A stretch of DNA of 64,000 bases from an uncultured Bacilli bacterium (GTDB taxonomy: Bacteria > Bacillota_I > Bacilli_A > RF39 > UBA660): contig CANRAF010000001.1 in assembly GCA_947628535.1 (NCBI GenBank), forward strand, positions 93,120-157,119. The letters are read 5' to 3'. Under the pieces are notes generated by a model. It was not told the DNA's origin and ran no database searches. It saw only the letters and a program-made list of their open reading frames with translations. This document shows, piece after piece, positions 11,708 to 42,879 of this stretch (positions are counted from its first letter, which is position 1; the number at the start of each line of letters is the position of its first letter). The position numbers and the translations under genes were made by a program.

Positions 11708-12620
11708 TCCTTTTTAAGGTGAAATTTTGGAATATTGTAAATAATGATGATGTTACCCAATAAAATGAAATTGCTGTTGGTAAAGTAAATGAGATAAATC
11801 CGATGAATACTGTCATTATTCTAGTCATTAATTTTTGTTGTTTTTCCATTTGCTCATTTGAAGCCATTGATGGATTTAATTTATAAGAGAAATAAGTAGC
11901 TGCAATTAGTATAACACATACAAATATATAATACCAATCACCTGCTGCCATAGCAGATCCTGGAGTTGTTCCCATATTTAATCCTATAAATGTTCCTTCA
12001 AAAATGGCTGGTACTCTATTTATTGCTTCCCAAAATGCCAAGAGAATTGGAAGTTGAATAAAAGCAAATAAGCAACCTGAAAGTGGTTTTATTTCGTATT
12101 TTTTATATACCAACATCATTTCCTGACCTTTTTTTGCCATTGATTCATTATCTGTTTTTCCTTCATATTTCTTTTCTATTCTATTAATTTCTGGTTGGGC
12201 TTTTTTCATATTTTCTGATTGAAGAAGAGTTTTTCTAGTCATAGGAAATAATGCAAATCTTATTATTAATGTAATTATTACTATTGATAAAGCTGGAGAT
12301 CCTACTAAAGATCCTATTTTTATTATGAAAAATGCTAAAGGTCTTACAAAAAATGTATTCCATAAGTTTTCATATTTGCCCACTATTTTCATATCATCGC
12401 AGTCTGGTAAGTCTTTAATATCTACTTTATTTTTTTCATATATTTTTAAAACATCTTTATCAGTTGGCTTACAAATTATGTTTTCTGTTATTGTTTGCCC
12501 TGTTTCTTCATTCTGAACTACTTTTCCATCTTTATCTTTTAATGTTTGAGTACATCCTGTTAAAGTTATTATAAGCATAAATATGACTAATACTTTTAAA
12601 ATTTTTGTTTTTTTATTCAT
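11691..12620 (-). CDS. yidC: Membrane protein insertase YidC/SpoIIIJ (lipoprotein form)
   Basis: Lipobox LTGC followed by the YidC TM core (PLSGCLFAFIQLPILLAFW...). Conserved position next to rnpA. Confidence 0.85.
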   Translation of the reverse strand: MNKKTKILKVLVIFMLIITLTGCTQTLKDKDGKVVQNEETGQTITENIICKPTDKDVLKIYEKNKVDIKDLPDCDDMKIVGKYENLWNTFFVRPLAFFIIKIGSLVGSPALSIVIITLIIRFALFPMTRKTLLQSENMKKAQPEINRIEKKYEGKTDNESMAKKGQEMMLVYKKYEIKPLSGCLFAFIQLPILLAFWEAINRVPAIFEGTFIGLNMGTTPGSAMAAGDWYYIFVCVILIAATYFSYKLNPSMASNEQMEKQQKLMTRIMTVFIGFISFTLPTAISFYWVTSSLFTIFQNFTLKRSGKNE

Positions 12621-12954
12621 TTTTATCTCCTTTTATTTTATTAAAAAGATATATTATCTCTTTTTCTAACTGTTTATAATCTAAATCAATAGTTTCTTTT
12701 TTACATATTATTATATATGTTTCATTTTGTTTATAAATATTTTCATTTTTATCTATTATATTTTTTATTCTTCTTTTTAATTTATTTCTTGTTACAGCAT
12801 TTGCTATGTTTTTGGCAAAAGTAATACCAAATTTTGGAATATTATCTTTATTTTGTTCTTTATTAATTATAAAATATTTACTACTATAGCCTTGTCTTTT
12901 TCTTATTATTCTATTGAAATCTTCTGATTTTTGGACGATATTTTTTTTTTTCAT
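12613..12954 (-). CDS. rnpA: RNase P protein component
   Basis: Basic 113-aa protein (MKKKNIVQKSEDFNRIIRKRQ...). Conserved position between rpmH and yidC. The likely start is the ATG at 12954, which lies inside an A11 run. Confidence 0.85.
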   Translation of the reverse strand: MKKKNIVQKSEDFNRIIRKRQGYSSKYFIINKEQNKDNIPKFGITFAKNIANAVTRNKLKRRIKNIIDKNENIYKQNETYIIICKKETIDLDYKQLEKEIIYLFNKIKGDKNE

Positions 12955-12998
12955 TTTTACCTCCATAATCAAAAATCCACTTTTGATAGTGGATTATT

Positions 12999-13124
12999 TT
13001 ATTTAGATAATCTTTTTCTTCCTTTTTTCCTTCTTTTATTTACTATTCCTGATTCCATACGAGAGAAGAAACCATGTTTTTTCTTCATTCTTCTATTATT
13101 TGGTTGATATGTACCTTTTTTCAC
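12999..13124 (-). CDS. rpmH: 50S ribosomal protein L34 (not in the ORF track; GTG start)
   Basis: Reverse-complement translation gives MKKGTYQPNNRRMKKKHGFFSRMESGIVNKRRKKGRKRLSK, which fits the L34 consensus. The RBS GGAGG lies 8 nt upstream. Confidence 0.85.
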   Translation of the reverse strand: MKKGTYQPNNRRMKKKHGFFSRMESGIVNKRRKKGRKRLSK

Positions 13125-13436
13125 TTCTTGCACCTCCAAACTTAATTAGTCGCTACTATTGTATATGAAAAGTAGGGTGGTTGTCAATATTTTTTTAGTT
13201 ATTAACAGAATAAACGTTAATTAACTTTTTTTATTTTAACAATTGTTAATAGTGTTATTAACTTTTTTCTTGAAATTTGTTAAAAACTATTTTATAGTAT
13301 GTATTTAAAGGAAAAAATATGTTGATAAGTTTGTTAATAAGTATGTTAATTAATATTTTAACTTTTCAAAAATTTAAAAATGTATTACAATTAAATTAAC
13401 TTGTTAATACTTTGTTTTTAGTGGGGAGATGGTATT
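13125..13436. promoter_or_regulatory. oriC, upstream DnaA-box cluster plus dnaA promoter region
   Basis: Repeated 9-mers TTATTAACA, or its reverse complement TGTTAATAA, at about 13199, 13245, 13255, 13332, 13345 and 13402. This is one mismatch from the canonical TTATNCACA box. The position between rpmH and dnaA is the standard oriC location. Confidence 0.6.
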
Positions 13437-14813
13437 ATGGATAATAATTTGTTATGGCAAAAAGTTTTAGATAATATTAGTAATATCGTTGACCCTTTGT
13501 CTTTTGATACTTGGTTCAAAAATATTGATTTTATAGATATCCAAAATCATTCAGTTAGATTAGTTATTCCAATAATGTGGTATAAAAGTCATATTGATAA
13601 TAATTATAAAGATATTATTTTAGAAAATTTTAATAATTTAATTAAAGATAATAATGTTGATAGTATTATATATATATTAAAAGATAATGTTGAAGATTTT
13701 TTAGAAAGTGAAAAGAGTAGTAATACTTCTTTGGAAGAAAAAAAAGAGAGTAATTATGTTAAAAATCATGTTTCTAATTTAAATAAAAATTATACTTTTG
13801 AAAGTTTTGTAGTAGGGGAGTCTAATAAATTTGCACAAGCTGCAGCTTTGGCAGTTGCTGAAAATCCTGGAACTATGTATAATCCTTTATTTATATATGG
13901 TAATAGTGGACTTGGTAAGACTCATTTGATGCATGCAATTGGAAATTATATTGAAAGTAAACTGCAAAAAAGAGTTTTATACGTTACTAGTGATGATTTT
14001 ATGAATGATTTTACAGGACTTGTTAGAAAAAATAGTAATGTTAATAACTTGGATTATGTTGATTTTTTCAAAAATAAGTATCGAAATATTGATGTTTTAC
14101 TTATAGATGATATCCAGTTTTTAGGAGGCGCAGAAAAATCACAACAAGAATTTTTCCATACTTTTAACAATTTATATAATGATAGTAAGCAAATTATTGT
14201 GTCATCTGATAGATCTCCTGAAGATTTAAAAGTTTTAGAAGATAGACTTAGAACACGTTTTGCCTGGGGTCTTCAGGTAGATATTAGTCCTCCTGATTAT
14301 AATTTAAAAGTTGCAATTATTAAGAATAAGTTAAAAAGAGAAGATATTGTTATAAATGAAGATGTTATATCTTTTATAGCTTCAAATATTGGTAATGATG
14401 TAAGACAACTTGAAGGTTCTATTACAAGACTTGTTGCTTATTCTGCAATCATGTGTGTTACTGATATTACACTTGATTTTGCAATGGAGGCATTAAAAGA
14501 TTTTACAAAGAAAGATAGTGTAACTGACCAAAATAATATAAGAAGAATTCAAAAAAGCGTTGCTAATTTCTATAAAATATCTTTTGAGGATATGAAATCA
14601 AAGAAAAGAACTCCAAATCTTGCTATTCCAAGGCAGGTTGCTATGTATTTATGCAGAAAACTTACTGATGAGTCATTTGAAAGAATAGGTATTGAGTTTT
14701 CTGGTAAAAATCATGCTACAGTAATACATGCTTGTAATAAAATTGAAAAAGAAATGAAAATAAATAAAGATCTAAATAATGCTATTGCTGATATTGAAAA
14801 GCAATTAACATAA
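13437..14813 (+). CDS. dnaA: Chromosomal replication initiator DnaA
   Basis: AAA+ Walker A (GNSGLGKTHLMHAIG) and a C-terminal DNA-binding domain. Confidence 0.95.
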   Translation: MDNNLLWQKVLDNISNIVDPLSFDTWFKNIDFIDIQNHSVRLVIPIMWYKSHIDNNYKDIILENFNNLIKDNNVDSIIYILKDNVEDFLESEKSSNTSLEEKKESNYVKNHVSNLNKNYTFESFVVGESNKFAQAAALAVAENPGTMYNPLFIYGNSGLGKTHLMHAIGNYIESKLQKRVLYVTSDDFMNDFTGLVRKNSNVNNLDYVDFFKNKYRNIDVLLIDDIQFLGGAEKSQQEFFHTFNNLYNDSKQIIVSSDRSPEDLKVLEDRLRTRFAWGLQVDISPPDYNLKVAIIKNKLKREDIVINEDVISFIASNIGNDVRQLEGSITRLVAYSAIMCVTDITLDFAMEALKDFTKKDSVTDQNNIRRIQKSVANFYKISFEDMKSKKRTPNLAIPRQVAMYLCRKLTDESFERIGIEFSGKNHATVIHACNKIEKEMKINKDLNNAIADIEKQLT

Positions 14814-22666: not shown

Positions 22667-22704
22667 TTTATTAAGTTGACTTTAAATAACATTTATACTA
22701 TTAT

Positions 22705-22790
22705 TGATATGTGCAACACATATGGTTGAACTAGGTCAGGATCGGAAGATAGCAGCCTTAAAATCCTCTATGTGTGTGCACTTTTTTTGG
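22705..22790 (+). ncRNA. ffs: Signal recognition particle RNA, short 4.5S type
   Basis: GGUCAGGAUCGGAAGAUAGCAGCC matches SRP domain IV (E. coli GGUCAGGUCCGGAAGGAAGCAGCC). It reproduces the same non-canonical pair pattern and GGAA tetraloop, with compensatory changes. A closing helix (GUGCAACACAUA / UAUGUGUGUGCAC) is followed by a U7 run. Confidence 0.75.
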
Positions 22791-22798
22791 AGGAAAGT

Positions 22799-35956: not shown

Positions 35957-36640
35957 ATGGAAATTAAAGAGGATAATCAAAGAAAATTAATACTATCAGT
36001 TTTAGGAGTTGCAATATTAGTAGTTGCAGTAATTGGAATATCATTTGCAATATATCAAGCTACATTTAGTCAAAATGATGCTAATAGTATTCAAACAGGA
36101 ACTATTACTGTTAGTTATACAGAACCTAGTAATGCTATTAGTATTTCTGATGCAATGCCAATGGCTGAAAAAACAGCTCTAAAACAAGATAATAATAAAT
36201 TTGAATTTACTGTTACTACTGGTGCAAGCGGAAGCCTTACAGTACCATATGATATTAGTATTACGAAAATTGAAGAAAGTGATAATAATTTGAATGATGA
36301 AAATGTTAGAGTTTATTTAACAAAAGAGGATGAAACCCCAGTTGACTTAAGTACAAAAGAAGAGTCAAATGCTTTATACAAATCGTCAAATTCAAAATCA
36401 AGGCTTATTTCTGAATTAAATGAATATAGTGGGCGTAAGGAAGAAAAAGCAAAACTTTTATATAGCGCACAAGATGTGTTTAATGGTGATAATTCTGAAA
36501 CAACAAAATCTACAAAGTATGTTCTTAGAATGTGGGTAGATAAGAATTATCCAATGGATAATGGTACTGTTTCAAAAACATATAAAGCTAAAGTAAATGT
36601 TGATTCAGTAGTAACTCCACTTGGAACAAAAACAGAATAA
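35957..36640 (+). CDS. TasA/camelysin-family secreted protein, subtype A, copy 1 (SipW-cognate signal)
   Basis: Signal: K-rich n-region, h-region, then GISFA|IYQ. The mature N-terminus (DANSIQTGTITVSYTEPSNAISISDAMP) aligns with TasA (DATFASGTLDLSAKENSASVNLSNLKP). The C-terminal motif is YVLRMWVDKNY...KTYKAKVNVD. Confidence 0.75.
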   Translation: MEIKEDNQRKLILSVLGVAILVVAVIGISFAIYQATFSQNDANSIQTGTITVSYTEPSNAISISDAMPMAEKTALKQDNNKFEFTVTTGASGSLTVPYDISITKIEESDNNLNDENVRVYLTKEDETPVDLSTKEESNALYKSSNSKSRLISELNEYSGRKEEKAKLLYSAQDVFNGDNSETTKSTKYVLRMWVDKNYPMDNGTVSKTYKAKVNVDSVVTPLGTKTE

Positions 36641-36670
36641 TAGATAATAATGTTATGGAAGGAGAAAACT

Positions 36671-37435
36671 ATGGAAAATAATATAAATGACGATAACAAT
36701 AAAAAAACATTAATATTATCAATTTTGGGAATACTTGTTTTGATAATTGCTGTAGTTGGTGTTTCATTTGCAATGTACAAATTTACAGGAACAGGGACTC
36801 AAGAAAATGTAATTACAACAGGTACTGTCAATATGAGTTTTGATAATGAAGAAGGTAATAATATTTCTCTTACTAACGAATATCCCATGACTGATGAATA
36901 TGCAATACAAAGTAAGGATACTCATAAATCAGAATTTACTATAACTGCTAATTTGTCTGTAGAATCATCAGTTGCTATAGCTTATAGTATAGGAATTGAT
37001 GATCAAAATATAGAAGAAGGGGAAACTTTAAAGAAAGAATATATCAAAATAGCTTTACTTGATGACGATAATAATATATTAGTTGGGACTCCAAATGGAC
37101 TAGATAGTCAAGAATTAACAGGAGGAACTTTAATATCTGAACTTGAATCTCAACAAGATAATTTAATAAATAAATATATGCTTGCTCATAAACTTATTAC
37201 AGGAAGTAATACTTCGGATAAATATACTCTTTATGCATGGGTTGCAGACACTTATAATTTACCTACTGGTAATGACAATAAAGATTCAACTCTTGATGAA
37301 AATGTTATTAAGACTGAAGAAGATGATAAAACAAAGCAAGAAAAGACAACAAAATCTGAAACTTTTAAATTTAAATTAATAGTAAAAGCAAAGCAATTAC
37401 TTGATGAAGAAGAATATGAAGAATATCAACAATAA
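36671..37435 (+). CDS. TasA/camelysin-family secreted protein, subtype B, copy 1
   Basis: Signal ...GVSFA|MYKFTGTG. C-terminal motif YTLYAWVADTYN...ETFKFKLIVKAKQ resembles TasA FSFEATQ. The RBS-supported start is at 36671; the ORF track starts at 36650. Confidence 0.75.
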   Translation: MENNINDDNNKKTLILSILGILVLIIAVVGVSFAMYKFTGTGTQENVITTGTVNMSFDNEEGNNISLTNEYPMTDEYAIQSKDTHKSEFTITANLSVESSVAIAYSIGIDDQNIEEGETLKKEYIKIALLDDDNNILVGTPNGLDSQELTGGTLISELESQQDNLINKYMLAHKLITGSNTSDKYTLYAWVADTYNLPTGNDNKDSTLDENVIKTEEDDKTKQEKTTKSETFKFKLIVKAKQLLDEEEYEEYQQ

Positions 37436-37585: not shown

Positions 37586-37607
37586 TGGTATAGTAAGGAG
37601 AATAGTG

Positions 37608-38267
37608 ATGGAAATAAAAGAAAATGGTCAAAAAAAATTATTGTTATCAATTTTGGGAGTGGCTATATTAGTTATTGCGGTAATTGGGATATCATTTGCA
37701 ATATATCAAACTACGTTTGATCAAGCAACTGCTAATAGCATTAAAACAGGGACTATTACTGTTAGTTATACAGAACCAAGTAATGCAATTGATATTGAAG
37801 ATGCAATGCCTATGAGTGAAAAAACAGCTTTAGAGACATTAAAGACAAGTAATAAAACATTTGATTTTACAGTTACTACTAAAGCAAGTGGGGAATTGAC
37901 TGTACCATATGAAATTAGCATTACAAAAGTGAGTGGTAGTTCAACTTTAGATGAGCAATATGTAAGAGTTTATTTAGAAAAAAATAATGGACCTGTTACT
38001 CTAATTGGTGAAAACGCAGTTCAAAAGGAAGGATTATATTCGAATCTCATTTCTAATTTAAAGGATTCAACGAAACGTCAAGATGGAACTAAACTTTTAT
38101 ATAGCACTAGTGATACTTTTGATAGTGAAAATAGTACAGCAATAAATACTACATATAAACTTATAATGTGGTTGGATGAAAACTATCAAATGGACAATGA
38201 GACTCAAACAAAAACATATAAAGCCAAGGTAAATGTTGATTCGGCTGTAACTCCAATCGCACAATAA
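37608..38267 (+). CDS. TasA/camelysin-family secreted protein, subtype A, copy 2
   Basis: Paralog of 35957-36640, with the same signal and GISFA|IYQ site. Start at 37608 after RBS GGAG. The ORF-track start at 37557 falls inside the promoter. Confidence 0.75.
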   Translation: MEIKENGQKKLLLSILGVAILVIAVIGISFAIYQTTFDQATANSIKTGTITVSYTEPSNAIDIEDAMPMSEKTALETLKTSNKTFDFTVTTKASGELTVPYEISITKVSGSSTLDEQYVRVYLEKNNGPVTLIGENAVQKEGLYSNLISNLKDSTKRQDGTKLLYSTSDTFDSENSTAINTTYKLIMWLDENYQMDNETQTKTYKAKVNVDSAVTPIAQ

Positions 38268-38305: not shown

Positions 38306-39046
38306 ATGGAGAATAGTAATAATAAGAAAGTATTAATGTTGTCAATTTTAGGAATAATTGTGTTAATAATTGCAATTGTTGGTGTTTCATTTGCAATGTA
38401 TACTTTTTCGGGAACTGGAACTAAGACAAATGTAATTACAACTGGAACAGTGAATATGAGCTTTGAAAATGGTAAAAATGTTATTAATGTTGATAATCAA
38501 TATCCTATGGAAGATTCAGTGGCAATAACAAAAGAAGAAAATCAAACAAAATTTAGTGTTACTGCAAATTGGGGTTCTGCTCCATTAGCTATAAAATATG
38601 ATATTGGGATTTTGACCCCTTTTACTGAAGGAGATACTTTAAAGGAAAAACATATCAAGATAGCTTTGGTGGATGGTTCAGGGAACATATTGGTCGGGAC
38701 TCAAGAACCAGCTAAAGAAATAGAAGCAGAAAAGCATAATTTGACAGGTGGAACTTTGATGTCAGAACTTAAAAGCCAAAGTGGAGATTTAATAAAAGAA
38801 TATTGGCTTGCTAACGGACTTATTACAAATAGTGGACAAAAGGATGAATATACCCTTTATGCGTGGGTAGATAAGGATTATAATTTGCCTTATGGAGAAA
38901 GCAATGATGATTCTAGTGCTAATGTAGAAGCTCCTAGTACTACTGATGGAAATGATCAAAGTGTTAAACACGAAAAGACTACAAAAAGTGAAACTTTTAG
39001 TTTTAAAATTAAAGTGCAAGCTGAACAATTAATTGACGAAGACTAA
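38306..39046 (+). CDS. TasA/camelysin-family secreted protein, subtype B, copy 2
   Basis: Paralog of 36671-37435 with GVSFA|MYTFSGTG and a C-terminal ETFSFKIKVQAEQ. Confidence 0.75.
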   Translation: MENSNNKKVLMLSILGIIVLIIAIVGVSFAMYTFSGTGTKTNVITTGTVNMSFENGKNVINVDNQYPMEDSVAITKEENQTKFSVTANWGSAPLAIKYDIGILTPFTEGDTLKEKHIKIALVDGSGNILVGTQEPAKEIEAEKHNLTGGTLMSELKSQSGDLIKEYWLANGLITNSGQKDEYTLYAWVDKDYNLPYGESNDDSSANVEAPSTTDGNDQSVKHEKTTKSETFSFKIKVQAEQLIDED

Positions 39047-39199
39047 TAATAGTTTATATTTATAAAAAGTAGATAGAAAAAACATTATGAAAAATTTCGA
39101 TCTACTTTTTTTTAAATAATAATTAATGTCTAATTTTTCCTTTTAAAATATATTATTTTGTGGTAATATATTATTATAAGTTTATAGTAGGTGTTGCTT

Positions 39200-40297
39200 A
39201 TGAATGATGATAAAGAAGAATTAAATATTCAAGAAGAGAAAATAGCAGATGAAGTAGCGGATGAAATACTAACTGTTGAGAATGATGAATATGAACAAAG
39301 ATCTTTTTGGTTTATTGTTTTATTTCTTTTTTGTTTGATATTTTTAGTTTCATCTCTTTCATTTGCAGTGTTTGATACTTATTATAATGGTGAAAGTAAC
39401 AATGTGATTACTGTTGACGTTGATGAAAATGTAACTCAATGTGACAAGAACTGTGATACAGATAATGATGGTATATGTAATTATAACTGTGATATGAATA
39501 ATGATGGTATATGCGATAAAAATTGTGACAATGATAGTGATGGAAAGTGTGACGAAAATTGTGATGATTCTTATAAAAAACCTAGCAATAATTATTATAG
39601 TGTTTGTAAAACTAATTGTGATGTAAATAATAATGGTATATGTAATTATAATTGTGATACAAATAACGATGGTAACTGTGATAAAAACTGCGATACCAAC
39701 AATGATGGAGTATGTGATAAACATTGTGATAGCTCATTTCAAAAGCCAGAATATCCTAATAATCAAGATGGGAATGGTGATGAAGGAAATGATGTGGAAT
39801 CTGGTACTAAGCCACAACCAAGTGAATCAGAAAAACCTGCTTCAGGATCAATATTATTTTCGTTTAATGAAGAATCAAATTATATAAATATGACTGGTGT
39901 ATATCCTACTTCTGATACTATTGGTAAGAAGCTTGTTGGGGATAGACAATATTTTGATTTTAGTATTTCTGCTTCAATGAATAAAAATAAAGGAAATTTA
40001 GTATATGAAATTTCACTTGTACCAATTAGTGAAAATACAATTCCTGAAAATATGGTTAGGGTTTATTTGACTGAAAATGGAAAGGATGTTTCGATACTTG
40101 ATAAAACTATAAATAATTATAGTGAATTACCTAATAGTAAATATAGAAATGGTGGTAAGGTAATTTATAGCAAAAAAATAAGTAAAAATTATAATGGAGA
40201 ATATGTATTTAGAATGTGGCTTTCTTCAAAAGCGCCTGTTTATAATTCTTCAAAGAAATTTGGTGTAAAAATAGCTGTTAATGCATACTACAAATAG
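39200..40297 (+). CDS. Chimeric secreted protein: acidic N-tail, SipW-type signal, two blocks of Cys-containing TSP3-like Ca-binding repeats, and a TasA-like C-terminal half
   Basis: Signal ...SSLSFA|VFDTYY. About seven 12-aa repeats (NYNCDTNNDGNC / DKNCDTNNDGVC; D-x-[DN]-x-D-G loops with two Cys each) at nt 39437-39730. The C-terminus (MVRVYLTENGKDVS...YVFRMWLSSKAP...KKFGVKIAVNA) is paralogous to the TasA-like proteins. Confidence 0.7.
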   Translation: MNDDKEELNIQEEKIADEVADEILTVENDEYEQRSFWFIVLFLFCLIFLVSSLSFAVFDTYYNGESNNVITVDVDENVTQCDKNCDTDNDGICNYNCDMNNDGICDKNCDNDSDGKCDENCDDSYKKPSNNYYSVCKTNCDVNNNGICNYNCDTNNDGNCDKNCDTNNDGVCDKHCDSSFQKPEYPNNQDGNGDEGNDVESGTKPQPSESEKPASGSILFSFNEESNYINMTGVYPTSDTIGKKLVGDRQYFDFSISASMNKNKGNLVYEISLVPISENTIPENMVRVYLTENGKDVSILDKTINNYSELPNSKYRNGGKVIYSKKISKNYNGEYVFRMWLSSKAPVYNSSKKFGVKIAVNAYYK

Positions 40298-40300
40298 TTA

Positions 40301-40954
40301 TTGAAAGGATTGGTTGGTGTGAAAAACATAATTAATAGAATTTTTAAGATTATTTCATCTGCTATTTTTGTTTTGTTAGTGCTTCTAATTATATTAATTA
40401 TTTTTTATATTGTTCGAGTAAATTTTATGGCTAGTAATGACAAATTAGGCGATGTTAGAATCAACTTTTATACTATTTTAACTCAAAGTATGTATCCCAC
40501 TATTAAAGCGGGAGATATAGTTATTACTTATAAATCATTAGATGGAAAATATAATAATGGGGATGTTATCACTTTTGTTTCAGATAATAATGGAGGTATA
40601 ACTGTAACCCATAGAATTGTTGAAGTTTTTAATGTTAATAACAATTATTCTTATAAGACTAAGGGAGATAATAATAATGCTCCTGATAATGATGTTATTT
40701 CTGAAGATCATGTACTGGGGAAAGTTGTTATGAAAATTCCTAAGGTTGGGTATATACAACAATTTTTAGTTAGTAAAACTGGATGGATTGCTGCTGTTAT
40801 ATTACCATGTTTAGGAATAGTTATTTATGATATACTTAAATTGTTTAGACTTGCTGCGAGAAAAGGTAAGAATCTTATTGTTCAAGATAAAAGAACAGAA
40901 GATGCTAGAAAAAGATTAAAAGAGGTGTATGAAGATGAAAGTGAGGAAGAGTGA
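40301..40954 (+). CDS. sipW: Signal peptidase I, SipW type (S26B, archaeal/ER-type)
   Basis: Catalytic Ser box (TILTQSMYPTIKAGDIV) and His box (VTHRIVEV) with a single N-terminal TM helix. The likely start is the GTG at 40319, after RBS AAAGGA. Confidence 0.8.
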   Translation: MKGLVGVKNIINRIFKIISSAIFVLLVLLIILIIFYIVRVNFMASNDKLGDVRINFYTILTQSMYPTIKAGDIVITYKSLDGKYNNGDVITFVSDNNGGITVTHRIVEVFNVNNNYSYKTKGDNNNAPDNDVISEDHVLGKVVMKIPKVGYIQQFLVSKTGWIAAVILPCLGIVIYDILKLFRLAARKGKNLIVQDKRTEDARKRLKEVYEDESEEE

Positions 40955-41570
40955 TTTTGATGTTAGTACAGATGATTTAATGTTTAAGGAAGAAGTTCCA
41001 GAGGGAGATCTTTATAGCAAAGTTAATGTAGATGATAGAATTTTTGAAGATAAGGCCGTTAGGAAGAAGAGAACAACATATTTAATTGTTTTAGCTATTA
41101 TTTTAATTATTTGTTCTATTCTTTGTGCTATTTTTGGGTTTATTTATTTAGATAAACAACTTAAAGATAGAATAAATAATCCAGTGGTAGAAAAATATGA
41201 TTTGTTTGTTGGTCATTCTAATAGTACTTATGGTGGAGAAATTTCTTCATTTGCTAAATATAATAGTGAAAACAGTGCTTTTTCATATAATTTTTATGTA
41301 AGCAATAACAATCCAGTTGATCTTGATTACTCTATTTTACTTGCTAATTTGGATTATGATAATAGTAAAATTGATATGACACTTATACAGTATAGTTTAC
41401 TAAAAGATAATGAAGTAGTAAAAACAGGTTATTTAGAAGATGAAAAAGATAATTTGTTATATGAAGATACTATTAAATCTAATTTTACTGATAATTATAC
41501 TGTTAAACTATGGAGTGATAAACTTTCTAAAAACAACAAATTTAACTTTAAAATCAATATAGGGGTATAA
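40929..41570 (+). CDS. Membrane/secreted protein with a 48-aa cytoplasmic N-tail, SipW-like cleavage motif and a TasA-like C-terminal motif
   Basis: Overlaps the sipW 3' end (translational coupling). TM/signal ...SILCA|IFGF. C-terminal YTVKLWSDKLSKNNKFNFKINIGV resembles the Y.L..W.D...K motif of the paralogs. Confidence 0.6.
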   Translation: MKMKVRKSDFDVSTDDLMFKEEVPEGDLYSKVNVDDRIFEDKAVRKKRTTYLIVLAIILIICSILCAIFGFIYLDKQLKDRINNPVVEKYDLFVGHSNSTYGGEISSFAKYNSENSAFSYNFYVSNNNPVDLDYSILLANLDYDNSKIDMTLIQYSLLKDNEVVKTGYLEDEKDNLLYEDTIKSNFTDNYTVKLWSDKLSKNNKFNFKINIGV

Positions 41571-41581
41571 GGAGGAAAAAT

Positions 41582-42268
41582 ATGAAGGCATTTTTTATAG
41601 ATTTTTTAACATTATTAGCTAATTGTATTTTAATAGTTTGTCTTTCTCTTATGTCGTTTTTCCTTATCGCAAATTTATATCATGCTAGAGAGATTTCTTA
41701 TGGATATAGTGCTGATTTAAAAAATGATTCTAAGTATAAAGACTATAAAAAAACAATAAATGATTCATTTAATAAGATGAAAAATATTAATTATGATAAT
41801 CGTAAGAATGAATTAACTGCTAAACCTATATATCAATATTACTCTGATTGTGTGGAATCACTTAATAATGGTACATTTGCCAATTTTGAAAATGATGATA
41901 ATATTACAGCATTAGATATTTACAATGCTAATAATGAGATTTTAAATGATTATAATAACAAATGTATTTTTTATCTTCCTTATAGTATAGAAACTATTTA
42001 TAAAGATAAAAAGCAAAATGTTTCGTTTAATAATGTTTTATCTTTAGTTGAGGAAAGAGGTAATATTATTTCATCAAATGCTAAGTATTTGACAGACTCA
42101 GAACTTGGCAATAGTTCTTATACATTTACTACCGATACTTCGAGAGTTAGTATTTACAATAAAATTAAAGGTGAACTTGATCTTACTATGAATAATTATG
42201 AATTGATATCATTGATTCTTAGTGATATATCGGATTGGTATGTTTTAGAGTTTGGAGGAAATAATTAA
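41582..42268 (+). CDS. Hypothetical secreted/membrane-anchored protein (228 aa)
   Basis: N-terminal hydrophobic segment (LANCILIVCLSLMSFFLIANLYHA). RBS GGAGGAAAAATATG. No recognisable domain. Confidence 0.5.
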   Translation: MKAFFIDFLTLLANCILIVCLSLMSFFLIANLYHAREISYGYSADLKNDSKYKDYKKTINDSFNKMKNINYDNRKNELTAKPIYQYYSDCVESLNNGTFANFENDDNITALDIYNANNEILNDYNNKCIFYLPYSIETIYKDKKQNVSFNNVLSLVEERGNIISSNAKYLTDSELGNSSYTFTTDTSRVSIYNKIKGELDLTMNNYELISLILSDISDWYVLEFGGNN

Positions 42269-42879
42269 TGAAAGATATTTTATGTAAAATTTTGGGATTT
42301 TTAAAATATATTCTGTTAATTGCTGCTTTTGGATTAGTATTTTATGGAATAATTGTAACATATGGTAGACTTGAAAAGCCTTTAGTGGAATCTATACCAG
42401 TATTTATCCCTTTTGGAGTTGTTTTTCTACTTTTTATAATTACTTTAATAATGAGAGCAAAAACAGTTAGTAAGAATTTACTTTTTAATTTTGTTTCAGT
42501 ATTTGTATTTGTAGTAACTATTATAATATGTTTAAGAGCTATGTTCGATACTAATATGATTTTGTTTCATAAATATTCTATAAATTATAATCCCGCATTT
42601 TTTTCTGATAATTTATCTGCTATAGAGGCTATGATATATATGCTTGGAGTTGCAAATTTAATTTTGTTGGTTTGTGATTTGCTTAATAAGGATAATAAGA
42701 GCAGAAAAAATAATTCTAAAAGTACGGTTTCTTACAATGACAATAAAACTTATGCTAAACAGGAAAAAAAAGAAAAGAATAATGATAAAGATTTTTTTGA
42801 AAAGAAGAAAGATATTTTAGAAGATAATAATATTGATAAGGATACAGAAGAAGTTTTAGAAACAAAAGATAAGGATTGA
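42268..42879 (+). CDS. Hypothetical polytopic membrane protein with a K/E-rich C-terminal tail
   Basis: Start overlaps the upstream stop (TAATG). Four predicted TM helices. Tail KNNSKSTVSYNDNKTYAKQEKKEKNNDKDFFEKKKD. Confidence 0.5.
   Translation: MKDILCKILGFLKYILLIAAFGLVFYGIIVTYGRLEKPLVESIPVFIPFGVVFLLFIITLIMRAKTVSKNLLFNFVSVFVFVVTIIICLRAMFDTNMILFHKYSINYNPAFFSDNLSAIEAMIYMLGVANLILLVCDLLNKDNKSRKNNSKSTVSYNDNKTYAKQEKKEKNNDKDFFEKKKDILEDNNIDKDTEEVLETKDKD

Follow-up and report, generated by a model that had tools for sequence, protein, structure and literature searches.

A twelve-residue cysteine repeat inserted into a putative minor subunit of a SipW-associated gene cluster from an uncultured Bacilli bacterium

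In loci of the TasA superfamily, genes for major, minor, tip, and anchor subunits commonly accompany that of a type I signal peptidase (bioRxiv 10.64898/2026.01.04.697558). In TasA the donor strand comprises residues 28-38 and the hinge residues 39-47 (PMC9674648). In B. subtilis the stop codon of tapA overlaps the start of sipW, and the connector of the TapA protein holds a single disulfide, C58-C68 (PMC10151520).

The window analysed here is a stretch of 64,000 nt from an uncultured Bacilli bacterium (GC content 26.9%). It contains a sipW gene and, directly upstream of it, an open reading frame with an array of 12-residue repeats, referred to below as the target. This open reading frame probably encodes a minor subunit of the SipW operon that bears the repeats as an insertion.

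The gene cluster around sipW

The following features of the cluster are all located on the forward strand.

35957..36640, + strand: paralogous subunit 1 (227 aa), SFA/IY signal and unbroken family module
36650..37435, + strand: paralogous subunit 2 (261 aa; E 1e-56)
37605..38267, + strand: paralogous subunit 3 (220 aa from ATG 37605; E 1e-67)
38306..39046, + strand: paralogous subunit 4 (246 aa; E 3e-56)
39189..39193, + strand: Shine-Dalgarno-like sequence AGGTG, 6 nt ahead of ATG 39200
39200..40297, + strand: target open reading frame (365 aa plus stop; 231 homologues)
40301..40954, + strand: SipW/archaeal-type signal peptidase I, opening 4 nt past the target stop codon (40295-40297)
40929..41570, + strand: sixth, divergent member of the family (213 aa), which has a long N-tail and a transmembrane segment of its own; weak HMM match (E 5e-5)
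41582..42879, + strand: conserved membrane proteins of 228 and 203 aa, the last two of the cluster ahead of rsmA/ksgA

The product of 40301-40954 scored 103.7 bits against TIGR02228 (cut-off 51.85) and 106 bits against the SipW model (E 1.7e-30). A target-type gene directly upstream of sipW is also present in syntenic loci, as is the gene at 40929-41570, whose product gave no significant BLASTP match to the family. The C-terminal half of the target matched upstream genes by BLASTP with E-values of 8e-9 and 2e-6, which confirms its paralogy to the neighbouring proteins as proposed in the preliminary description. A scan for promoters and terminators, uninformative in such AT-rich DNA, returned 52 promoter-like sites (61 expected) and zero terminators.

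ATG 39200 is the likely start of the target since the alternative GTG 39191 falls within the Shine-Dalgarno-like AGGTG; the homologues begin with M-x-[ED]-x-K. The protein is divided as follows.

39200..39298, + strand: acidic N-tail, predicted to be cytoplasmic (aa 1-33; 14 D/E versus 2 K/R)
39299..39367, + strand: hydrophobic signal or anchor segment by hydropathy (aa 34-56), terminating in S-F-A
39368..39415, + strand: conserved segment behind the predicted cleavage site (aa 57-72, VFDTYYNGESNNVITV), the donor-strand-like N-terminal segment of the family
39416..39841, + strand: 142-aa insertion relative to the family module (aa 73-214), with the Cys repeats and a Pro/Ser/Glu-rich tail
39842..40294, + strand: C-terminal core, predicted to be a β-sandwich (aa 215-365), paralogous to the four upstream subunits

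Positions 5-49 of the family HMM matched aa 28-72 (E 5e-9), a stretch including SFA-x-F...G...N-x-I-T that resembles the donor-strand segment of the major subunits, and positions 49-200 matched aa 215-363 (E 2e-45). Because the match splits at position 49, the repeats sit inside a 142-aa insertion, with the signal/donor-strand-like segment on one side and the predicted β-sandwich core on the other. In most orthologues this site is a hypervariable acidic linker of 10-90 aa, rich in D/N/K/S and free of repeats; 115 of the 120 homologues listed (231 matches overall) have only a D/N/K/S-rich linker there. Homologue P0002 carries 5.5 units at the insertion site, and P0061, P0063, and P0068 carry 1.5 units each.

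As the preliminary description had stated, an acidic, presumably cytoplasmic tail precedes a hydrophobic segment of the SipW signal type. The tail contains the motif A16-D17-x-V19-A20-D-E-I-L24-T-V, in which A16, D17, V19, A20, and L24 are invariant in 76 homologues. The AF2 model shows a helix at aa 10-24 with moderate confidence and a single long helix over aa 30-62. S54, F55, A56, and F58 vary little or not at all among the homologues, and cleavage by SipW is predicted after A56 (SFA/VF; compare TWA/AF in TasA). Further downstream T60, Y61, N63, G64, N68, and V72 are nearly invariant; a low-confidence β-strand is modelled at aa 69-72.

This N-terminal region could also be read differently. 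The target could be an uncleaved type II membrane protein whose ADEVADEILTV sequence engages a cytoplasmic partner, so that the protein would act as a base, an assembly platform, or a signalling element. Five residues of its tail are invariant, its n-region is long and acidic, unlike that of classical signal peptides, the large repeat proteins described below and the product of the gene at 40929 likewise have long conserved N-tails, and the single long helix of the AF2 model would fit an anchor. An invariant cytoplasmic motif would indeed be unexpected in a signal peptide that is merely discarded, and this counts against a cleaved subunit. However, S-F-A/x-F is no less conserved than in the neighbours with short tails and aligns with the verified cleavage site of TasA, and the reading frame of a dedicated SipW opens 4 nt downstream. 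We therefore regard the uncleaved membrane protein as rather unlikely and prefer a subunit that is cleaved by SipW.

The relation to TasA itself was assessed by profile comparison. hhalign aligned the family with TasA at a probability of 22-50% (E 1e-3 to 1.6e-4) over the signal, the cleavage site, and the first strands only, pairing SFA/xF with the verified TasA site TWA/AF and TGTIxMSY with SGTLDLSA. The best structural match of one paralogue is the TasA fibre. Neither the target, its C-domain, nor the neighbours matched Peptidase_M73 (PF12389), and the TIGR04088 model gave no match. Among the 149 representatives of the family, three had sub-threshold M73 matches (best E 6.5e-4), and a subunit from the related L023 locus reached 20.1 bits, below the gathering score of 22.5. 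The TasA-like half claimed earlier is on these data only tentative. TapA (PDB 6HQC/6QAY) was not matched at E<=10 when profiles A1 and A2 were compared with all PDB sequences.

In the same database the best hits of the six-paralogue profile were archaeal type IV pilins (8tib, 6nav, 8fjs, and 6w8x; E 0.012-2.9), which would suggest pilin-like proteins that keep their N-terminal hydrophobic helix instead of TasA-like donor-strand fibres. These E-values are not significant, and the nine cluster proteins include no prepilin peptidase motif and no pilus-assembly ATPase or platform protein. We consider a pilin identity hardly credible and rejected it.

The repeat array

The array consists of two blocks of 48 residues, each composed of three full and one half 12-residue unit.

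39440..39583, + strand: repeat block 1 (aa 81-128), with CDKNCDTDNDGI, CNYNCDMNNDGI, and CDKNCDNDSDGK as full units and CDENCDDSYKKP as half unit
39584..39604, + strand: spacer SNNYYSV separating blocks 1 and 2
39605..39748, + strand: repeat block 2 (aa 136-183), with CKTNCDVNNNGI, CNYNCDTNNDGN, CDKNCDTNNDGV, and CDKHCDSSFQKP

A full unit of the target reads C-x3-C-D-x-[DN]-x-[DN]-G-x and the terminal half unit CDxxCD[DS]S[YF][KQ]KP. The 16 cysteines of the ectodomain are spaced 4,8,4,8,4,8,4 in each block, with 15 between the blocks. TRF detected a period of 36 nt at 39439-39565 (3.5 copies, 74% matches), and a repeat search found four copies in register, spaced 36, 93, and 36 nt apart. The two blocks represent a higher-order duplication at a lag of 165 nt with 74% nucleotide identity. 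At a lag of 36 nt the DNA identity is 0.647, compared with 0.421±0.028 in 5000 codon shuffles (z=8.1, reached in 0/5000); at a lag of 12 residues the protein identity is 0.477, compared with 0.138±0.035 in the shuffles (z=9.6, again reached in 0/5000). The preliminary description of a 36-bp tandem repeat that encodes 12-residue units, each with two Cys and an Asp-rich loop motif, is confirmed; the array is in frame, and the motif reads D-x-[DN]-x-[DN]-G. The span given there, 39437-39730, covers the same array, ends slightly short at the 3' side, and uses a unit register other than the present one.

The units of the target are 44-83% identical to one another at the nucleotide level, the longest exact repeats being 19 and 16 nt. 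At the residues that are kept, synonymous changes occur: TGT/TGC, GAT/GAC, AAT/AAC, and GGT/GGA. The retention of the conserved residues through synonymous changes, despite this nucleotide divergence, indicates selection on the repeat peptide.

It had further been proposed that the nucleotide repeats give the gene scope for variation in repeat number. The limited identity of the units and the shortness of the exact repeats speak against a high potential for slippage, and in the only two other assemblies in which it occurs (ENA contigs; ERZ27249519 and ERZ27249530) the target gene is identical over 1098 nt, so that a comparison of repeat numbers across these assemblies revealed no variation. 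No exact match to a flanking 38-mer turned up in a scan of JGI metagenomes. The copy number of the unit differs among species and is constant across the three assemblies seen.

The unit was compared with the calcium loop D-x-D-x-D-G-x-x-D-x-x-D. Loop positions 1, 3, 5, 6, and 9 are present (D6, [DN]8, D10, G11, and D2'), position 11 is a conserved Asn, and position 12 is Cys or Ile. The repeats had been compared with thrombospondin type-3 or OmpA-like repeats, a membership that the profile searches do not support. TSP_3 and TSP3_bac gave zero matches at E<=10 for the repeat regions of the target and P0002, and zero matches at E<=1 in arrays of up to ~50 units and in the Flavobacteriaceae proteins described below. 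Pfam, NCBIfam, and the PDB sequences did not recognise the unit, and no meaningful PDB relative was found with the repeat, a long Cys-free/Cys array, or profiles A1, A2, and A3; the NCBIfam matches of the repeat are compositional only (Ser-Asp stalks). Since pLDDT is <50 over aa 77-211 in the AF2 model of the target, the putative calcium sites and disulfides receive no structural support from it.

Distribution of the unit and role of the cysteine pair

With a degenerate DNA pattern scan the 12-residue unit was found in at least 120 genome stretches, mostly metagenome-assembled genomes of gut Bacilli, with up to 99 units per open reading frame, and also in T9SS adhesins of Flavobacteriaceae. 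The consensus is C-D-L-N-C-D-T-[ND]-G-D-G-K with D2, N4, D6, [DN]8, D10, and G11 fixed. Lone unit matches in high-GC genomes (Microbispora, Gemmatimonas, Polyangiales, and Verrucomicrobia) were set aside as unrelated, since the frames concerned are short or consist of GC-rich, low-complexity sequence.

Repeat-containing frames are co-oriented with a SipW homologue in 37 of 37 loci, and in 26 of these sipW begins 38-400 nt downstream. The repeats adjoin a transmembrane or signal segment, a dockerin (L027), or, in Flavobacteriaceae, a T9SS CHU_C domain; these neighbours are anchors, and the arrangement is therefore consistent with a stalk. An architecture of N-tail, transmembrane segment, repeats, and β-domain, encoded directly upstream of sipW, is common in related gut Bacilli. 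The suggestion that the target is a new kind of matrix component is not supported, because its unit is a widespread module in a common architecture. hhalign revealed no significant relation (probability 0.7%) between the C-domain family of the target and the C-domains of 'PGWTG' type in the large repeat proteins; hence homology of the two C-domain types is not established, and what they have in common is architecture and gene position only. Orthology of the target to the repeat proteins of loci L006 and L086 was rejected; metG is shared at 79% identity, but the genes behind metG differ from those in the window.

Positions 1 and 5 of the unit covary. Among 2,982 units both are Cys in 1602, neither is Cys in 1357, and only 23 are mixed. 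The C...C pair is swapped as a pair for P...[IVL], even inside the same arrays, and lone CDLNC units occur amid Cys-free units. This behaviour bears on two alternatives to a calcium-binding, disulfide-stapled stalk.

First, the insertion could be a loose, fast-evolving linker of low complexity, its cysteine periodicity being a by-product of the duplication of one short unit with neither specific calcium nor disulfide chemistry. Tracts rich in N/D/K/Y would expand by duplication in a genome of 27% GC, the insertion site is hypervariable with repeat-free orthologues, the carriers of Cys units are not monophyletic in a neighbour-joining tree of the C-domain, and the NCBIfam matches are compositional, as stated above. 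It is difficult to reconcile such a linker with a 12-residue pattern with strictly paired C1/C5 that recurs in about 3,000 units from two phyla, or with the synonymous changes at conserved residues, which indicate selection on the peptide. We consider this explanation unlikely.

Second, the C-x3-C pairs could bind a transition metal (Zn, Fe, or Cu) or stay reduced thiols, making the stalk metal-binding or redox-sensitive. From the titles of the metagenome-assembled genomes, the bacterium appears to be an anaerobe of the gut, and it is uncertain whether disulfides would form extracellularly in such an organism, a point that counts against a stapled stalk. Moreover, C-x3-C-x7-C-x3-C offers four thiols per 1.5 units, and the smallest version of the insertion (P0061/63/68) has exactly four Cys. 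Yet no metal-site family was matched, and both the pairwise replacement and the isolated CDLNC units favour a self-contained staple or core position over an obligatory Cys4 site. A metal-binding or thiol stalk therefore appears quite improbable to us.

Proposed role and comparison with known systems

Our preferred explanation, to which we give about even chances, is that the target is a minor, TapA-like subunit of a SipW-dependent system of TasA-like surface fibres and carries a calcium-binding stalk. The position of the gene directly upstream of sipW and the similar layout of the protein point to a TapA-like role as initiator or anchor. In a tentative alignment the 142-aa insertion maps to the hinge between donor strand and core (TasA residues 39-47). 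Each unit would form one calcium loop of the D-x-D-x-D-G type, and its C-x3-C pair would staple the loop as a disulfide. Loops and staples together could produce a stiff, acidic stalk and thus a longer tether from the donor strand to the core, and the target may then serve as the low-copy initiator or anchor of fibres made from the four upstream paralogues. A wider proposal is that the unit is a new, cross-phylum stalk repeat, calcium-dependent and stapled by cysteines, which in the target forms a donor-strand hinge insert and creates a 'long-tether' TapA-like initiator or anchor, stiffened by calcium and with its reach set by the repeat number. This proposal is possible, with our judgement leaning against it.

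Uncultured gut Bacilli harbour a large unannotated family of TasA-like surface modules associated with SipW, to which the finding gives access. Clustering of this family, that of the target, at 50% identity yields 1,370 groups, and many of these carry LRR, Ig-like, LysM, or DUF285 domains as fused passengers. The unit is repeated thousands of times and is annotated in none of Pfam, NCBIfam, and PDB. Should the units bind calcium, they would constitute a compact new class within the DxDxDG repertoire and would account for how the length and stiffness of surface stalks are set in these bacteria. An insertion in the hinge that joins the donor strand to the core would provide a concrete model of how an initiator or anchor of fibres is built; the minor subunits of the TasA superfamily are poorly understood.

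With thrombospondin type-3, EF-hand-like, dockerin, and Excalibur repeats the unit shares one contiguous D-x-[DN]-x-[DN]-G-x-x-[DN] loop per unit, flanking cysteines, a predicted extracellular location, and tandem arrangement. It differs from these and other DxDxDG loops in lacking an HMM or PDB sequence match, in its strict 12-residue period, in having Cys or Ile instead of an acidic residue at loop position 12, and in the C-x3-C pair within the unit that is exchangeable for P...I. As in the SD repeat stalks of the staphylococcal MSCRAMMs (ClfA/B, SdrC/D), an acidic repeat of variable length lies between a cell-proximal anchor and a β-domain. SD repeats, in contrast, are dipeptides with neither Cys nor DxDxDG loops, and the MSCRAMM anchor is a C-terminal LPXTG.

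TasA/camelysin as well as AbpA, AbpX, and Tafi resemble the present system in the adjacent type I signal peptidase, the β-sandwich core (predicted here), and the multi-subunit locus. Unlike TasA/camelysin, the target family is unannotated and falls below the Pfam threshold everywhere. AbpX binds calcium at the strand-groove interface, whereas the putative calcium sites of the target lie in the repeat stalk.

A close parallel is TapA (YqxM), which serves the TasA fibres of B. subtilis as accessory or initiator protein. Both genes lie immediately upstream of sipW with the stop codon abutting its start, and major subunits are encoded within the same cluster. Both proteins, the target by prediction, combine a SipW-type signal, a short N-terminal strand as in the major subunit, a Cys-containing connector, and a β-sandwich domain (PMC10151520; PMC9674648). 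The connector of the target, however, comprises 142 aa and has 16 Cys in a periodic DxDxDG repeat, compared with the single C58-C68 disulfide of TapA. Its β-domain is paralogous to the putative major subunits of the cluster and not a V-set Ig domain, and the target, unlike TapA, has a long acidic N-tail that is predicted to be cytoplasmic. Finally, the major subunits are encoded upstream of sipW here and downstream of it in the tapA operon. The locus is thus a variant inside a recognisable system and not a new mechanism.

The repeat array and its copy number

The features on which the following depends are these:

39200-40297, + strand: target open reading frame; likely start ATG 39200, 6 nt after AGGTG
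aa 81-128 of its product: repeat block 1
SNNYYSV: spacer between repeat blocks 1 and 2
aa 136-183 of its product: repeat block 2

A GTG at 39191 lies inside the AGGTG ribosome-binding site, and consequently ATG 39200 is the likelier start. The preliminary description had claimed an array of 36-bp, 12-residue repeats at 39437-39730. The periodicity was borne out: Tandem Repeats Finder reported a 36-nt period over 39439-39565, a repeat search of the target found four in-register copies (spacings 36, 93, and 36 nt), and neither the DNA identity at lag 36 (0.647 versus 0.421±0.028 shuffled; z 8.1) nor the protein identity at lag 12 (0.477 versus 0.138±0.035; z 9.6) was equalled in any of 5000 codon shuffles. 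The array is present, but its 3' boundary is at 39748 and not at 39730. In each block three full units C-x3-C-D-x-[DN]-x-[DN]-G-x are followed by one half unit, CDxxCD[DS]S[YF][KQ]KP, and the two blocks form a 165-nt duplication with 74% nucleotide identity. At the DNA level the units share 44-83% identity; no exact repeat is longer than 19 nt (lag 165), and at lag 36 the longest is 16 nt. The ectodomain contains 16 cysteines with a spacing of 4, 8, 4, 8 and so on. An antisense open reading frame across the repeat (39359-39724, - strand, 121 aa, I/T/V-rich, MFITYSIIVGIAVFITV...) is probably not a gene but a consequence of the periodicity on the sense strand.

The number of units per protein differs by species (0, 1.5, 5.5, 7), and the carriers of Cys units are not monophyletic in a neighbour-joining tree without support values. 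The target gene is identical in two other assemblies (0/1098 mismatches); an exact-match scan of JGI metagenomes with the target flank gave no match. The variation in repeat number that was seen is evolutionary and was found between species, not among strains as represented by the target and the two other assemblies. In L001, a contig of ENA ERZ27249519 that is the same as the window over the whole target, we observed a 26-nt deletion and clustered substitutions at 38326-38378, in the signal-peptide region of the paralogue 38306-39046, which is called 30 aa shorter there. A difference between strains, pseudogenisation, and an artefact of assembly are all conceivable causes.

The module and its insertion point

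Pfam and NCBIfam recognised neither the repeat nor the C-terminal half of the target. This half is, as had been proposed, paralogous to the neighbours 35957-36640 (E 8e-9) and 38306-39046 (E 2e-6), and the open reading frame 40301-40954 encodes a SipW/archaeal-type signal peptidase I scoring above the curated cut-off. In relatives the order paralogous subunits, target, sipW, divergent paralogue, two membrane proteins is kept, the locus being flanked by tatD/yabE-like genes on one side and rsmA/yabG on the other. The gene after sipW (40929-41570, + strand) has a long charged N-tail and a transmembrane segment and matches the HMM of the module family weakly (E 5e-5); counted with it, the cluster has six paralogues, two with long cytoplasmic tails. 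Elsewhere in the window a bacterial small SRP RNA was found at 22700-22797 (+ strand, 61.8 bits), and the orientation of all open reading frames of at least 200 aa changes from - to + at about 12620-13437, as would be consistent with a replication origin in the vicinity.

A search of 5.8 billion proteins returned 231 homologues of the target. Four parts are conserved in this family: a cytoplasmic motif A16-D-x-V-A-D-E-I-L-T-V, a hydrophobic segment with an S-F-A end, the sequence F-x-T-Y-x-N-G...N-V-I-x-V, and a C-domain of ~150 aa. Among the best 120 of the 231 homologues, 115 are 238-296 aa long and have a D/N/K/S-rich linker of variable length, without Cys units, at the insertion site; Cys units occur only in the proteins P0002 (5.5, one block) and P0061, P0063, and P0068 (1.5). 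A conserved acidic cytoplasmic motif is unusual for a signal-peptide n-region. The target could be an uncleaved membrane anchor using this invariant motif, a reading that we consider less likely than a cleaved subunit. Acidic motifs before SipW-type signals are of two kinds, ADEVADEILTV in the target family (target aa 10-26) and [DE]EQY[KQ]ELL[AE]EEK in large repeat proteins (N-termini in the loci L011, L020, L022, and L057).

A profile of the five window ectodomains retrieved 1,370 representative clusters from 1.84 billion proteins at E<=1e-3. Most members have ~200-230 aa, with the domain beginning at aa 41-50, and many longer ones carry C-terminal LRR_5, Big_2, DUF285, LysM, Flg_new, or cadherin-like passengers of up to 1,561 aa. 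The window subunit module is the N-terminal domain of this very large unannotated family (representatives P0241-P0389), and its general role may be the SipW-dependent attachment of adhesins. The family HMM, built from 136 representatives with the signal region included, matched the target in two pieces, positions 5-49 with aa 28-72 (E 5e-9) and positions 49-200 with aa 215-363 (E 2e-45). Consequently, aa 73-214, including both repeat blocks, are an insertion in an otherwise contiguous module, situated between '...N-x-I-T' and 'T-G-x-I-x-[MF]-S-[YF]'.

AF2 predicted a β-sandwich for the C-domain (pLDDT >90). The repeat region (pLDDT <50) is not interpretable; the short helical turn drawn there over x-N-C of four units would place C(i) next to C(i+4), but at too low a confidence to carry weight. 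With hhalign the family matched B. subtilis TasA (query checked against 8aur/5of1) at 22-50% probability over ~60 columns, comprising the signal peptide, the cleavage site (SFA/xF versus TWA/AF), and the first strands. Pfam Peptidase_M73 matched just below threshold in 3 of 149 family representatives and in one subunit of the locus L023. Taken together, these three observations suggest that the module is probably a distant member of the TasA superfamily, and the "TasA-like" half of the earlier proposal is weakly supported; the sub-threshold matches fall short of formal family membership. On the hhalign register the target insertion would tentatively fall between TasA A40 and S41, within residues 39-47, which in the fibre bridge donor strand (28-38) and core and reach towards the next subunit (PMC9674648). 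A type IV-pilin-like reading of the cluster was rejected: the best PDB matches of the six-paralogue profile A1 were archaeal type IV pilins (8tib, 6nav, 8fjs, 6w8x) but were non-significant, and we suspect that the hydrophobic helix drives them.

Spread of the repeat unit

The genomes of 185,579 species were searched with a degenerate 54-nt pattern that encodes C-x3-C-D-x-[DN]-x-[DN]-G-x-C-x3-C-[DN] and for which, by a rough estimate, less than one chance match is expected. The pattern was found in at least 120 genome stretches, with up to 99 units per open reading frame. About 50 of the 80 matches listed by title are uncultured gut 'Bacilli bacterium' MAGs; other titles among them are Clostridium sp. 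CAG:524, Ca. Ventrenecus, Erysipelotrichaceae, and 'Tenericutes' or 'Mycoplasma' bins. The usual Bacilli MAG protein has an acidic N-tail, a transmembrane segment with G-A-T-F-A-Y-like motifs, a long array of alternating Cys (CDLNCDTDGDGK) and Cys-free (PDINIDTDGDGK) units, and a C-terminal β-rich domain of ~110 aa. Four bins labelled Muribaculaceae (L014, L016, L024, L034) contain repeat proteins of the Bacilli type, followed directly in L024 and L034 by a SipW homologue; these could be Bacilli contigs that were binned wrongly, and not Bacteroidota.

The unit also occurs in other architectures. L027 (uncultured Bacilli MAG MGBC164908) encodes a protein, 1,960 aa long or longer, that has many repeated cadherin-like β-domains and ends in a type I dockerin (Pfam 1.2e-12); six Cys units lie between the last β-domain and the dockerin, where the context of the repeat stalk is cellulosome-like. 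In Flavobacteriaceae and related MAGs (L064, L087, L098, L111) Cys units (CDLNCDTDGDGD) and Cys-free units (PDVNIDTDGDGT) lie between Invasin_D3/Big_1 and a T9SS CHU_C sorting domain, adjoining TSP3-looking DTDGDGIPDYLD repeats; the presence in these adhesins makes the unit cross-phylum. Sequence searches of Pfam, NCBIfam, and PDB recognised the unit in none of the Bacilli, L027, or Flavobacteriaceae contexts. The repeat always stands beside the protein end that attaches to the cell or to a scaffold, as would suit a spacer or stalk.

Of 2,982 units in 112 proteins, 1602 have Cys at both position 1 and position 5, 1357 have it at neither, and only 23 are mixed; the cysteines therefore make up a self-contained C-x3-C pair within the unit. 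The pair is replaced as a pair by P...[IVL], and D2, N4, D6, [DN]8, D10, and G11 are near-fixed in both kinds of unit. That the cysteines are transition-metal ligands or free thiols in an anaerobe is possible but unlikely, as the pairwise exchange for P/I favours a structural staple. The insertion aa 73-214 could also be an inert low-complexity linker, a reading that the hypervariability of its site favours; the conservation of the repeat pattern across phyla and synonymous variation at the conserved repeat residues make this unlikely.

Of the repeat loci, inspected as 8-kb stretches, 37 contain a SipW homologue (27-41% identity), co-oriented with the repeat gene in every case. In 26 of these 37 the start of sipW lies 38-400 nt past the end of the repeat gene, the same gene position as in the target. 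The C-domains of the target and of the large repeat proteins have no significant similarity (hhalign probability 0.7%); architecture and gene position are in common, not proven orthology.

We give about even chances to the target being a TasA-like, SipW-associated minor subunit with a widespread, unannotated stalk repeat of predicted Ca-loops and Cys pairs at the donor-strand hinge. Repeat, C-terminal paralogy, and acidic N-tail before a SipW-type signal in the preliminary description stand, but the unit is widespread and not peculiar to this protein. What the target gene gives access to, a family of repeats and a large family of unannotated modules, is of more value than the gene alone.

Comparison with TapA and a possible mechanism

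TasA-superfamily loci commonly encode an SPase I together with subunits of the major, minor, tip, and anchor kinds, and in one clade Ca2+ induces polymerisation (bioRxiv 10.64898/2026.01.04.697558). Given this locus make-up and a TapA-like layout and gene position, the target may by analogy be a low-copy initiator or anchor subunit. SipW would cleave it at the predicted site between A56 and V57, and its putative donor-strand tether would be lengthened by a stalk of seven D-x-D-x-D-G-type predicted Ca2+ loops, each stapled by a C-x3-C pair as a putative disulfide; fibres could then form with the target as initiator or anchor. TapA consists of a signal (aa 1-43), an N-terminal unit that is essential (aa 44-57), a connector bearing the C58-C68 disulfide, and an Ig domain, and the tapA stop overlaps the sipW start (PMC10151520). 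TapA donates its N-terminal strand and so starts TasA fibres (PMC9674648). The target resembles it in layout, its signal and conserved N-terminal strand segment being followed by a Cys-containing connector and then by a β-domain, and in that its gene abuts sipW.
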